From Escherichia coli 042 (lineage in GTDB: Bacteria > Pseudomonadota > Gammaproteobacteria > Enterobacterales > Enterobacteriaceae): 64,000 nucleotides of DNA. The notes beneath the pieces are model-generated. The model worked only from the letters and a program-made list of their open reading frames with translations, did no database searches and had not been told where the DNA came from. This document shows, in pieces, positions 46,563-58,562 of the stretch (positions within the stretch are counted from its first letter, which is position 1; each line of letters begins with the position of its first letter). The DNA is taken from the NCBI RefSeq assembly GCF_000027125.1, contig NC_017626.1, one strand, 5' to 3'. The position numbers and the translations under genes were made by a program.

Positions 46563-48548
46563 TTAATTTGGGGTTACGATATTCACCCACAAATCGAAAT
46601 TATCCAGACAGGCAATAATTTCTTCCAGTTTCGCGCCATTGCCAATAATTTTGGCTTTCTTCGCTTTTACCAGATCCGCCATTTTGGCTTGTGCGGTCAG
46701 CACGGCGTGAAGATCTTCACGGCTGATGTAGAAAGAGGCGTTGGCTTCAGGTTGCAGCGTTTTACGGTAGTTAAGCACGCTATCGTTCAGCGTCAGGTTG
46801 AGGTTATCGCCGTTGCTCATATTGAAGTTCAGGCTGATATTCTTACCTGCGGCTTTCGCGCTATCGAGGCGAACGGCCATAAAGTCGAATAGCATTTCGA
46901 CCGACATTCCGCGAAGGGTGTCCGGGAAACCGGTGGAGCTGTGGCTGAACTTATGTACCCCTTCGCGCAGCTCTTTCGCGCCGGTCAGGTAGAAACCGCG
47001 CCAGGTGGCGGACTCGGCCTGATAGCCCAGCTGTTCAAAGTTATTCGCTTGCAGATTCTTCGCGACCTGGTCACCAGGGTTGGCGGCAATCACCTGTTTC
47101 AGCAGTTCTGCCGACCAGCGGTAATCACCTTGCTTGTTCGCTTCTTGCGCCAGGTTGATGACACGGGCAGAACCGCCCAGCGCCTGCACGTAACGTTTAC
47201 CCATCTCCACCTGACCATACGGATGCAGGTTAGCCGGGTTACCGTCGTAATAGCCAAGATAGAAGTTATACACCGCGCGGGCGTTGTGGCTGACAGAACC
47301 GTAATAGCCGCGGCTGGCCCAGTTATTGGCAAGCGCAGGCGGCAGCTTAATCATGTCGCCGATTTCATTCATGGTGTAGCCCTGGTTTGCCAGGTGCAGG
47401 GTCTGGTCGTGAATGTACTTGATGGTATCGCGATATTTACCAATATAATCATTGATATGCTTATTGCCCCAGACCGGCCAGGTGTGCGGCATAAACAGTA
47501 CTTCCGCGTCATTACCCCACATATCCAGCGTTTCGTTCAGATACTCGGTCCACTTGCTGGTGTCGCGGGTTTTCGCGCCGCGCAGAGTGTAGAAGTTGTG
47601 CAGGGTATGCGTGGCGTTCTCGGCGGTACACAGGGCTTTCAGAGCCGGAATATAGAAGTGCATTTCGGCTGGCGCTTCGCTACCCGGAGTCATCAGGAAG
47701 TCAAATTCCAGGCCGTCGATAATCATCTTCTCGCCAGTTCTGACGATAGTTTTAGTCGGTGCAATAATGCTCGGGTCGCCCGTTGCCAGCGTCACGCCCA
47801 GGCCGTTGCCCACGTTGCCTTGCGCGTTGTGCGGCAGTAACAGACCGTAAGAGTAGAGCGCACGGCGGCTCATGATGTTACCCGCCAGCACGTTTTCGCT
47901 GATGGCTTCGTCCATAAAGCCTGCCGGAGCGATCACCTGCACTTTGCCGGATTTAACATCCGCTTCAGAGATAATGCCTTTCACACCGCCATAATGGTCG
48001 GCGTGGCTGTGGGTGTAAATCACAGCAACAATCGGTTTTTGCGGACGATGCTGGAAGTAAAGGTCAAGTGCGGCTTTTGCGGCAGGCGGCGTCACCAGCG
48101 GGTCGATAACAATAATGCCTTTTTCGCCTTCTACAAATGTAACGTTAGAGATATCTTGGCCGCGCACCTGATACATTTTATCGGTGACTTTGAACAGGCC
48201 AGAAATACCGTTGATTTGCGACTGACGCCACAGGCTGGGGTTTACGGTTTCCGGCGCAGCGGCATTAATATCAAATTTGTAATCGTCTGCGCGGTAGTAA
48301 ACTTTACCGTTCGCATCACGCAGAATACCTTCATCCAGCAGCGGGGCGATAAATCCACGCTGGGCATCGTCAAAATCTTGACGATCGCTAAACGGTAATG
48401 ATTTGGCGTAATTCTGATTAATCTGTTGGGTATATTGAGTGGCGGCTTTCGCTTCCTCTTTCGCGTTAGCGGTATTTACCATCATGCCGCTGGCGGCAGT
48501 TAACGCAATAACAATCCTGCTCAAACGGAATAACCGAGAGTTATTCAT
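46563..48548 (-). CDS. yjcS: Alkyl/aryl sulfatase YjcS (metallo-beta-lactamase fold, 661 aa)
   Basis: Translation [29 protein letters not shown]... with the [10 protein letters not shown] motif; ATG (cat) at 48546..48548. Confidence 0.9.
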
Positions 48549-48800
48549 ATAAATCTCCATTTATCATTTATGTCGTAAATATGTAGTCCATGCAAAATAC
48601 GTCATTTGAAGCTGGCGTTATCATAATTGGGAATTTGCGACTTTAATAAGTGGAAGTGTGAGCGGAGCGAGCCATTTTATTAGGCATTTGTGCTGAAGAG
48701 GGAAAAGTACGCGAATTTATTATCTCTGTAAATAATATGAGGTATTTTATATATTTATTATATATATTGTACTTCGGCAAATACTGAGCACAATTAATCA

Positions 48801-49118
48801 ATGCAACCGGTGTTTCTTTTTAAAAAACGTACCGGAGCAATGGGCGGTCATGTCGCTGGCACCGCAGGATTCTGTGTTGCTGTGCCAACCTTTTATTCAT
48901 GGTCAATGAGTGAGGGGATTGATAAAGAAACCAGGTCGTCAGAGCGCACTGATTATCCGCATTACGCCAGTGACGTTGCACTGGCTTTTGGTTCACGAGT
49001 GGTTGGCCTCGAACTGGCAAAAATGATTGTGGATGCGTGGCTGGGCGCGCAGTACGAATGCGGTCGTCATCAACAACGCGTGGAGGCGATTACGGCAATA
49101 GAGCAGCGGAAAAATTGA
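48801..49118 (+). pseudogene. rpiB: Remnant of ribose-5-phosphate isomerase B: C-terminal RpiB-like blocks fused to unrelated 5' sequence; catalytic core missing
   Basis: Translation contains SSERTDYPHYAS and AFGSRVVGLELAKMIVDAWLGAQYE.GRHQQRVEAITAIEQR as recalled for RpiB, but lacks the Cys-containing central region and the native N-terminus; sits where alsK-alsB, rpiR and rpiB lie in K-12. Confidence 0.6.
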
Positions 49119-49186
49119 GATTCATCCACTACTTGCATGGATGAGTAATGACTAATATGGATAGAGTTTCTTTTTGAGGTTGGCTA

Positions 49187-49516
49187 ATGAAACGCTTTCC
49201 GCTATTTCTTTTATTCACCCTGCTCACGCTGTCCACCGTTCCGGCCCAGGCCGATATTATCGACGACACCATTGGCAATATTCAGCAGGCGATTAACGAT
49301 GCTTATAACCCTGACCGTGGGCGAGACTATGAAGATTCGCGCGACGACAGCTGGCAGCGTGAAGTGAACGACGATCGGCGCAGACAATATGACGATCGCC
49401 GCCGCCAGTTTGAAGATCGCCGCAGGCAGCTGGACGATCGCCAGCGCCAGCTTGATCAGGAGCGTCGGCAACTGGAGGATGAAGAGCGGAGAATGGAAGA
49501 TGAGTATGGGCGGTGA
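49187..49516 (+). CDS. yjdP: Secreted small protein YjdP (109 aa) with a periodic Arg/Asp/Gln-rich repeat
   Basis: Translation MKRFPLFLLFTLLTLSTVPAQA... then DDRRRQ(Y/F/L) heptad-like repeats. Confidence 0.8.
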   Translation: MKRFPLFLLFTLLTLSTVPAQADIIDDTIGNIQQAINDAYNPDRGRDYEDSRDDSWQREVNDDRRRQYDDRRRQFEDRRRQLDDRQRQLDQERRQLEDEERRMEDEYGR

Positions 49517-49550
49517 TGTTGAGTCTAGAGCAGGCATCGCCCCTCACCCA

Positions 49551-50321
49551 TCACTCCACCCCAATCTCCACCCCAATCTCCATCCCATCAAACCCCGCCT
49601 CAAACCCCGACGGCAGTGCGTTTTCCATCAGCCACGCATCAAACTGGTGGCTGATATGGGTCAGAATCACCCGTGGCGAGCGGATAACCTGATTCAGCGC
49701 AAGCACGGTATTTAAATCACAGTGATTACGCGGTGCATCCTCGCGCGGCGGGTGGCTGCAATCAATCACCATTACCTGTGGCTGATTATTGCGTAAAAAT
49801 TTCAGCGTTTTTTCCGGCAGGCCTGCGGTGTCAGACAGCCACGCCACCCGGCTATGTGCCGTTTCCAGTAAATAGCCGAAAGTGAGTTTCGAATGATTGA
49901 GCGGCAGCGGCGTGACCTGTAATCCCTGCAAATCAAACACTACAAACGGTTCCACCGTGTGGCTGAAATCAAGCAGGCCCGGATGTTTAAACAGATCGTC
50001 GCAGCCCTGTTCATCCGGCGGGCCGTAGACCGGGATCGAATCGCCCACGCCCCAGCGCAGCGGAAACAGCCCCTGCACGTGATCCATATGGTAGTGCGTC
50101 AGCAAAAACTGCTGGAACGATCCGGGCGACCAGCGATCGGCGAGATCGTGCAGCCCGGCGTCGATCAGGGTGATCGCGTCGTTAAACTTCACGACGCCGC
50201 TGCATGGCTGGCGGCGATACTGTGGTGAGCGCCGCGCTCTGACGCAGGCCGCGCACTCGCAGCCCCATGCCGGAACGCCCTGTGCGCCGCCGGTGCCGGT
50301 GAGCGTGAGGGTCAGACTCAT
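49551..50321 (-). CDS. phnP: Phosphoribosyl 1,2-cyclic phosphate phosphodiesterase PhnP (256 aa here)
   Basis: Metallo-beta-lactamase motif THYHMDH; C-terminus carries a 12-bp tandem duplication (EIGVEIGVE). Confidence 0.9.
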
Positions 50322-50322
50322 G

Positions 50323-50757
50323 TTACAGCGCCTTGGTGAAGCGGAAGTGACTCTGCTCGTAGCCTTCTCGCAGATAGAAACGGTGCGCGTCGTGGCGCTT
50401 CACGTTGGTCGAAAGCTCAGTCATTTCGGCCCCGGCCTGGCGGGCTTCTTCTTCTGCCCACGCCAGCAACTTGCTACCGACGTTCAGGCCGCGCGCCTGC
50501 GGCATCACCACCAACTCCTGAATTTCGCCGATCCAGTTGACATGATGCAGATGAAACTGCAAATGCAGGCCGATCATGCCGACAACTTCGCCATCCAGTA
50601 GCGCCAGATGGTAGCGCATGTTTGGGTCGCGCAGGTTGGCGTTAAAGCCCACGCGAAACGCGTGGTGGTCAAACTCCGCCTGTTTTAGCTCACAAATCAG
50701 CGCGTAAACTGCGTCGGTGTCGTACTGCGTAGCCGGGCGAAGCTCACAAGCAGGCAT
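50323..50757 (-). CDS. phnO: Aminoalkylphosphonate N-acetyltransferase PhnO (144 aa)
   Basis: GNAT-fold translation [34 protein letters not shown]... Confidence 0.9.
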
Positions 50758-53147: not shown

Positions 53148-53220
53148 CGCGCGCATTGCCCCTCACCCTAGCCCTCTCCCCTCTGGGGAGAGGGCCGGGG
53201 TGAGGGGACCAGCGCGCACG
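53148..53220. repeat. GC-rich nested palindromic intergenic element between phnK and phnL (boxC-like)
   Basis: gcgcgc..cccctcaccc..ccctctcccc-tct-ggggagaggg..gggtgagggg..gcgcgc: perfect 10-bp inner stem nested in an outer stem. Confidence 0.7.
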
Positions 53221-57667: not shown

Positions 57668-58447
57668 TCAGATAAAGTGCTTACGCAACCGTTGAGAGAG
57701 GAAATCCAGCAGGCTGACCGTGACGATAATCAGCACCATCAGGGCGCAGGTTTGCTGGAACTGGAAACCGCGAATCGCTTCCCACAGCGTGACGCCGATC
57801 CCGCCCGCGCCGACCATGCCAACAACGGTGGCCGAACGGACGTTGGATTCGAAGCGATAGAGGGAGTAGGAGATCAGCAGCGGCATCACCTGCGGCAGCA
57901 CGCCGTAGAGGATCTCTTCGAGCTTGTTGGCACCGGTGGCGCGAATACCTTCCACCGGGCCGGGTTCAATTGCTTCTACCGCTTCGGAAAGCAGTTTGGA
58001 GAGCACGCCGGTGGTGTGGATAAACAGCGCCAGCACGCCAGCGAACGGGCCAAGGCCGACGGCGACCACGAACAGCATGGCGAAGACCATTTCGTTAATG
58101 GCGCGGCAGGCGTCCATCAGGCGGCGTACGGGCTGGTAAACCCACCACGGCACCAGGTTTTCGGCGCTCATCAGACCGAAGGGGATGGAGAGAACCACCG
58201 CCAGCGCGGTGCCCCAGACGGCGATTTGCAGCGTGACGGCCATTTCGGTGAGGTAATCCTGCCACTGGCTGAAATCGGGCGGGAAGAAGTCGGCGGCGAA
58301 GGTTGCCATGTTGCCGCCGTCTTTAATCAGCGTGAGCGGGGCCATTTCCGCGCCCTGCCACGAGACGACCAGCACGGCGAGAACAATGGCCCAGCTCAGA
58401 AGCGAGAACCAGCTGCGCTTGGGTGGGGCGATGGTGATGGTTTGCAT
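57668..58447 (-). CDS. phnE: Phosphonate ABC transporter permease PhnE, intact (259 aa)
   Basis: Single uninterrupted ORF with multiple TM segments; this gene is frameshifted in K-12. Confidence 0.9.
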
Positions 58448-58464: not shown

Positions 58465-58562
58465 GTTTTCTCCCTCTCCCTGTGGGAGAGGGCCGGGGTG
58501 AGGGCATCAGCGTGCGCATTTTCCCCTCATCCTAACCCTCTCCCTCAAGGGAGAGGGGACCG
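58465..58562. repeat. GC-rich double-hairpin palindromic element between phnD and phnE (boxC-like)
   Basis: ccctctccc-tgt-gggagaggg..ccggggtgaggg ... tcccctcatcc..ccctctccc-tcaa-gggagagggg; same motif family as the element at 53148..53220. Confidence 0.7.

Follow-up and report, generated by a model that had tools for sequence, protein, structure and literature searches.

In-frame 12-bp tandem duplication at the 3' end of phnP, an allele of one Escherichia coli lineage

The phnP gene in the 64-kb stretch of Escherichia coli DNA analyzed here (64,000 nucleotides, referred to as the window) contains a 12-bp sequence twice in tandem just before its stop codon. Where does the second copy come from, is it peculiar to this strain, and does it have any function? 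The answer we prefer, with a probability of roughly 0.85, is replication slippage between imperfect repeats followed by descent in one lineage, meaning that the array is a mutational footprint and no functional element.

The phnP locus and its repeat array

The gene is identified by NCBIfam profile TIGR03307, which its product matches at 428.2 bits, above the equivalog cutoff of 272.25, and by alignment of residues 1 to 251 to PDB entry 3G1P, "Protein phnP" (E = 7e-176). PhnP acts in the C-P lyase pathway as the phosphoribosyl 1,2-cyclic phosphate phosphodiesterase, an enzyme of the metallo-beta-lactamase fold, and its metal-binding HxHxDH motif (H76-Y-H78-M-D80-H81) is invariant across the homologue alignment. 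The gene is the last of the phnCDEFGHIJKLMNOP operon: the end of phnO (NF007530, 315 bits) lies 1 nt upstream, the ORFs from there back to phnC, phnN and phnM among them, are present, and related genomes are annotated alike. K-12 has the same gene at the same position (phnO-phnP, convergent with yjdP), and its PhnP (252 aa; PDB 3G1P/3P2U) is 98% identical to that of the window, with only A27V, P95S, M186I, A194E, and V242A differing over 251 aligned residues. The window protein has four more C-terminal residues (EIGV) and ends in Glu, where K-12 has Ala. The original prediction of a 256-codon ORF, four codons longer than in K-12, is correct. The features at and around the array are as follows.

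49187..49516, + strand: yjdP, encoding a DDRRRQL repeat protein of 109 aa (NF041443, 147 bits), convergent with phnP and unaffected by the duplication
49517..49550: 34-nt spacer separating yjdP from phnP, which converge on it, with a haplotype also found in L015
49551..50321, - strand: phnP coding sequence, 256 codons plus stop (ORF list, TIGR03307, 3G1P alignment)
49551-49553: phnP stop codon, read as TCA (reverse complement), which the array directly adjoins
49554..49565, - strand: repeat copy 1, CTCCACCCCAAT on the + strand, coding for the final I-G-V-E
49566..49577, - strand: repeat copy 2, CTCCACCCCAAT, the same as copy 1
49578..49589, - strand: imperfect third unit, CTCCATCCCATC, coding for D-G-M-E and kept in all alleles
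49590..49613, - strand: second native imperfect 12-bp pair, AAACCCCGCCTC / AAACCCCGACGG, coding for S-GFEA-GFD

On inspection of the + strand, CTCCACCCCAAT is present as two perfect tandem copies spanning 49554 to 49577. Tandem Repeats Finder reports the array with a period of 12, 2.8 copies, 95% matches, and a score of 61, and chance alone would give only ~0.004 perfect 12+12 tandems in 64 kb (4^-12 x 64,000). Relatives have one copy where the window has two identical head-to-tail copies, and the 12-bp gap in alignments with L001, L016, and other 252-aa alleles equals one unit. Sequence, repeat finder, and allele alignment together confirm the predicted 12-bp tandem duplication with its one added EIGV unit as real. 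The array itself was correctly located, although its end had been placed at 49583, 6 bases into the imperfect third unit, a harmless overrun. The 12 bases that are extra compared to 252-aa alleles lie within copies 1 and 2 jointly, since the duplicated 12-mer can be read in more than one register (CCACCCCAATCT is one example); the aligned gap against L016 falls at 49571-49582.

The usual E. coli PhnP allele has 252 aa and ends in ...FDGMEIGVA. All seven representative complete-genome loci, K-12 among them, encode a 252-aa protein; five, including K-12, end in ...MEIGVA, and L004 ends in ...MEIEVA. The canonical tail reads TCA CGCCACCCCAAT CTCCATCCCATC on the + strand; with L004, which has one C-to-T change within the unit, it takes the form TCA CGCCACC(C/T)CAAT CTCCATCCCATC. 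In addition to the 12-bp unit, the window has T at position 49555 compared to the canonical G (+ strand), so that the last codon is GAG in place of GCG and the last residue Glu in place of Ala. The difference between the window and the usual allele is therefore one extra unit plus one last-codon base change. Terminal Glu is common standing variation, as the O25b:H4 and SK1144 alleles end in ...MEIEVE.

The sequence next to phnP is variable as well, with yjdP-phnP spacers of 27, 34, 42, 76, 146, and 158 nt among E. coli genomes, those compared including L002 (spacer at 1578-1723) and L003 to L006. The K-12 spacer contains an extra repeat element of ~112 nt with GGGGAGAGGG/CCCCTCTCCCC inverted repeats that the window lacks, and L003 shows a further 12-bp difference inside this K-12-type element. 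The same repeat family as this K-12 insert downstream of phnP is found in the window at 53154-53212 and 58480-58547, in intergenic positions of the phn operon, as G/C-tract inverted repeats of the type CCCCTCACCC...GGGGAGAGGG...GGGTGAGGGG that are flagged by G4Hunter. By far the highest-scoring tandem repeats of the window are REP/BIME-like arrays at 27309-27680 and 38124-38385 (92 bp x 4.1 and 113 bp x 2.3 copies). Within yjdP, a 21-bp tandem array of 3.5 copies at 49370-49442 encodes DDRRRQx units. The yjdP product of O25b:H4 and SK1144 (L017/L018, 314-670) has 118 aa compared to 109, with an LFT unit (9 bp) expanded in the signal peptide, where FTLFTLFTLFTLFT corresponds to FTLLTLST in the window. 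Beyond yjdP, a truncated rpiB-like ORF (48801-49118; 105 aa compared to 149 aa) directly adjoins yjcS, and the als operon and 5' rpiB, located between yjcS and yjdP in K-12, are absent from the window; L001, L003, L011, and L014 are alike in this respect.

Distribution of the 256-aa allele and of other tail lengths

The original prediction regarded the duplication as specific to one strain. The same 256-aa protein, however, is found on ~94 contigs (exact protein look-up; 175 blocks of the collection), the very kind of finding that had been named in advance as refuting this view. Its carriers are independent isolate assemblies, many of them NCBI pathogen-detection isolates, and one metagenome, and they include GenBank CBG37281.1. 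Four of them that we aligned, three NCBI isolate assemblies (L007, L009, and L010) and an ENA metagenome scaffold (L008), have the identical DNA tail and are 99.76 to 99.98% identical to the window over about 6.6 to 6.8 kb. The 256-aa PhnP is thus a lineage allele, common to one E. coli lineage and not private, and it is already catalogued in public databases. As for the polymorphism itself, we found no literature on phnP/yjdP tandem repeats, in-frame changes, or slipped-strand mispairing.

These carriers also bear on whether the short repeat was merely collapsed or expanded in the source assembly. Short tandem repeats are occasionally misassembled, but an array of 24 to 36 bp is far below any read length, the exact protein recurs on 94 contigs, GenBank CBG37281.1 among them, and the tail is identical at the DNA level in independently assembled isolates and in the metagenome scaffold. 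The chance of an assembly or sequencing artefact is negligible, and the presence of the same allele in independent assemblies rules it out as an explanation.

Among complete genomes, a 261-nt query across the site has a match in 5,404 of 5,426 E. coli genomes, none of them at >=99% identity. A 170-nt query that is anchored in a unique part of phnP matches 5,391 complete E. coli genomes, and with hits ranked by coverage times identity none of them has the EIGV duplication. Three complete genomes do cover this whole query, but with other 12-bp duplications a few codons upstream of the EIGV site: L011 has the tail ...GFEV-GFDV-GFDG..., and L012 and L013 are duplicated in the GFEA/GFDG pair region. 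How common, then, are length changes at this gene end? A variant survey in which 40 members were read from each of four 90%-identity clusters adds further cases. Together with the complete genomes and the window allele, at least 7 independent 12-bp gains or losses fall within the last ~14 codons and yield alleles of 248 and 256 aa, and no change of PhnP length outside these codons was found among the full-length proteins read. The other E. coli alleles are as follows.

P0053: the K-12 allele with GFEV added
P0055: the K-12 allele minus GFEV
P0042: GFEA lost
P0034/P0035: GFEA gained
P0018: VGFD gained, in another register
P0039/L015: MEIG lost, giving 248 aa with the end ...FDGVE before the stop

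All of these (P0034, P0035, P0018, P0053, P0055, P0042, and P0039, of 248 or 256 aa) resemble the window allele in that the change is 12 bp, in frame, and located between neighboring imperfect 12-bp repeats. Most of them affect the GFEA/GFDG pair, where other lineages show the duplications GFEA-GFEA, GFEV-GFEV, and GFEV-GFDV as well as losses of GFEA or GFEV; only P0039, by loss, and the window, by gain, change MEIG/V(E). The indel alleles are each rare, on 2 to 94 contigs, compared to 281 to over 1000 contigs for 252-aa alleles.

Origin of the duplicated unit

Slippage is expected to act where direct-repeat microhomology flanks a unit beforehand, and this is what the relatives of the window allele contain. 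The ancestral units, C(G/T)CCACCCCAAT and CTCCATCCCATC, are alike at 8 to 9 of 12 bases at a 12-bp spacing, and the neighboring AAACCCCGCCTC / AAACCCCGACGG pair is alike at 9 of 12 positions, its window copy being unaltered. The third unit, CTCCATCCCATC, predates the duplication and is the source of microhomology (CTCCA, then CCCA) for slippage. The 3' end of phnP natively holds two adjacent imperfect 12-bp direct-repeat pairs (GFEA-GFDG and MEIG-VA), and we propose the following course. On a haplotype with GAG (Glu) and not GCG (Ala) as the last codon, the terminal units would share CTCCA-CCCA at 12-bp spacing, and slippage in replication, or unequal exchange, between these units would add one 12-bp unit. 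The frame would be kept, PhnP would acquire four residues (EIGV) at its extreme C terminus, past the last beta-strand of its metallo-beta-lactamase fold, and the allele would then spread by descent in one E. coli lineage, probably with no effect on enzyme function. Slippage appears to be the natural and best reading of the mechanism.

Can a single slipped-strand indel, as originally proposed, explain the whole tail? It accounts for the gain of the unit but misses the base change at 49555. If the canonical tail is simply duplicated with CCACCCCAATCT as the unit, the result is ...EIGVEIGVA, and therefore two events are needed: one slippage alone does not yield the observed tail, and the change at 49555 is required as well. 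The base change probably came first and slippage second. L015, of 248 aa, shares the GAG last codon and the intergenic haplotype with the window in spite of a phnP region of only 96.3% identity, and it carries a 12-bp loss on the Glu-terminal haplotype. This haplotype has thus given both a contraction (L015) and an expansion (the window), which fits a base change preceding slippage. We can only infer this order, because intermediates with the window protein body (...EIGVE at 252 aa and ...EIGVEIGVA at 256 aa) have no exact match in the collection; neither has a three-copy form of 260 aa with this body.

The window protein body with a canonical tail was seen once, in P0017/L016 (Logan SRR27009710). 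This nearest relative without the duplication is set apart from the window, over 6.77 kb, only by the 12-bp gap and 4 base changes. The changes at 49513, 49525, and 49555, three of the four, are no more than 45 bp away from the indel, and such clustering suggests that the tail may have been imported by homologous recombination, as a gene-conversion patch of ~50 to 100 bp or more, from another E. coli allele. The donor would already have had the GAG last codon, the intergenic haplotype, and perhaps the duplication, so that slippage would still be the ultimate origin, only elsewhere. The exact intergenic haplotype and terminal GAG found in L015, in spite of its divergence around phnP, point the same way. 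On the other hand, the search met no donor that has the EIGV duplication in a different background, none of the 5,391 matching complete genomes carries it, and all carriers read are >=99.76% identical around phnP. L016, moreover, is a single 20-kb Logan contig that may itself be a recombinant or a mixed assembly. Weighing these points, we consider import possible yet unlikely, and slippage within the lineage, followed by descent, remains our preferred account.

The recurrence of 12-bp indels makes the last ~14 codons of phnP a small recurrent indel hotspot, and indels would recur there because the native sequence holds two adjacent imperfect 12-bp pairs. Positions 49536-49610 are also the longest stretch in the 64-kb window with |G4Hunter| of ~1.36 to 1.92, G-rich on the phnP coding strand; that this G-tract richness might add to local instability is speculation. 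Whether the last ~75 nt of phnP and the spacer amount to a true mutational hotspot, through non-B DNA (G-quadruplex or slipped hairpin) or 12-nt periodic microhomology, we regard as rather doubtful.

Consequence for PhnP and meaning of the allele

The array had been placed in a disordered tail. This description is too simple: an AlphaFold2 model of PhnP (mean pLDDT, 81.6) has beta-strands at 240-242 and 248-252 in the tail, with pLDDT of 94 for residues 241-250, and most Enterobacteriaceae orthologues hold the 252-aa length. In Citrobacter, Klebsiella, Enterobacter, Kluyvera, Raoultella, and other genera, orthologues are nearly all of exactly 252 aa and share the tail G(F/I)EAG(Y/F)DGMEI(V/M)LD, in which D245 is invariant. 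The canonical tail is thus predicted to form an ordered terminal beta-strand, with the four added residues beyond it modeled at low confidence (mean pLDDT of 58 for residues 251-256). Several distant homologues, one from Serratia marcescens, have natural C-terminal extensions of 3 to 20 residues. For PhnP, the duplication is probably neutral, as originally suggested; strict neutrality of length changes would not be guaranteed, because 252 aa is strongly conserved across Enterobacteriaceae.

Does the array serve as a switch? Recurring indels at one place could mean selection and not mutation bias, and the region is the longest G-tract-rich stretch of the window. These two observations would suit a phase-variable element acting on PhnP or on the 3' end of convergent yjdP, or a C-terminal extension selected for activity or oligomerization. 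Against these readings, a unit length divisible by 3 makes on/off frameshifting impossible, and all variants, of 248, 252, or 256 aa, keep the frame; copy number is only 2 to 3; and the array looks stable in the carrier lineage, without a one-copy (Glu-terminal) or three-copy variant of the same protein body. Every indel allele is rare, far below the counts of 252-aa alleles, and the added residues lie outside the TIGR03307 profile, which aligns by positions 1-248 of 249 to PhnP residues 3-248 and ends its match there. A promoter and terminator scan of 49100-49900 found no pattern at the repeat and an Rfam scan of 48500-50500 (E<=1) no match, so nothing here points to a role as RNA or in regulation. 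A functional role of this kind is very improbable. A contingency locus is rejected, since copy-number change by 12 bp leaves the frame intact; nor is the mutability of such a locus seen, the window protein body occurring as the two-copy allele (94 contigs) and one canonical-tail contig.

A known case in the same operon offers a comparison. The K-12 phnE allele is frameshifted by an 8-bp repeat, which makes the phn operon cryptic and is reversible by slippage. It likewise involves a short tandem unit gained and lost by slipped-strand events, but the 8-bp unit shifts the frame and turns the operon off or on, whereas the 12-bp unit of phnP is in frame and switches nothing. In the window, phnE (57668-58447) is an uninterrupted ORF of 259 aa, in contrast to the frameshifted K-12 allele, and the phn operon is otherwise intact as well; it therefore looks functional in this strain.

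Overall, the phnP duplication is an ordinary allele, and a 256-aa PhnP should be taken as a legitimate inherited form, neither an annotation nor an assembly error. PhnP length (248, 252, or 256 aa) is homoplastic and hence a poor naive lineage marker. A G-tract-rich stretch of 50 bp in which 12-bp indels recur may offer a small natural example of imperfect-repeat slippage, and if the region were a true hotspot, tail length as a marker would be convergent and homoplastic, and the locus would be a small natural model of structure-driven slippage in E. coli.
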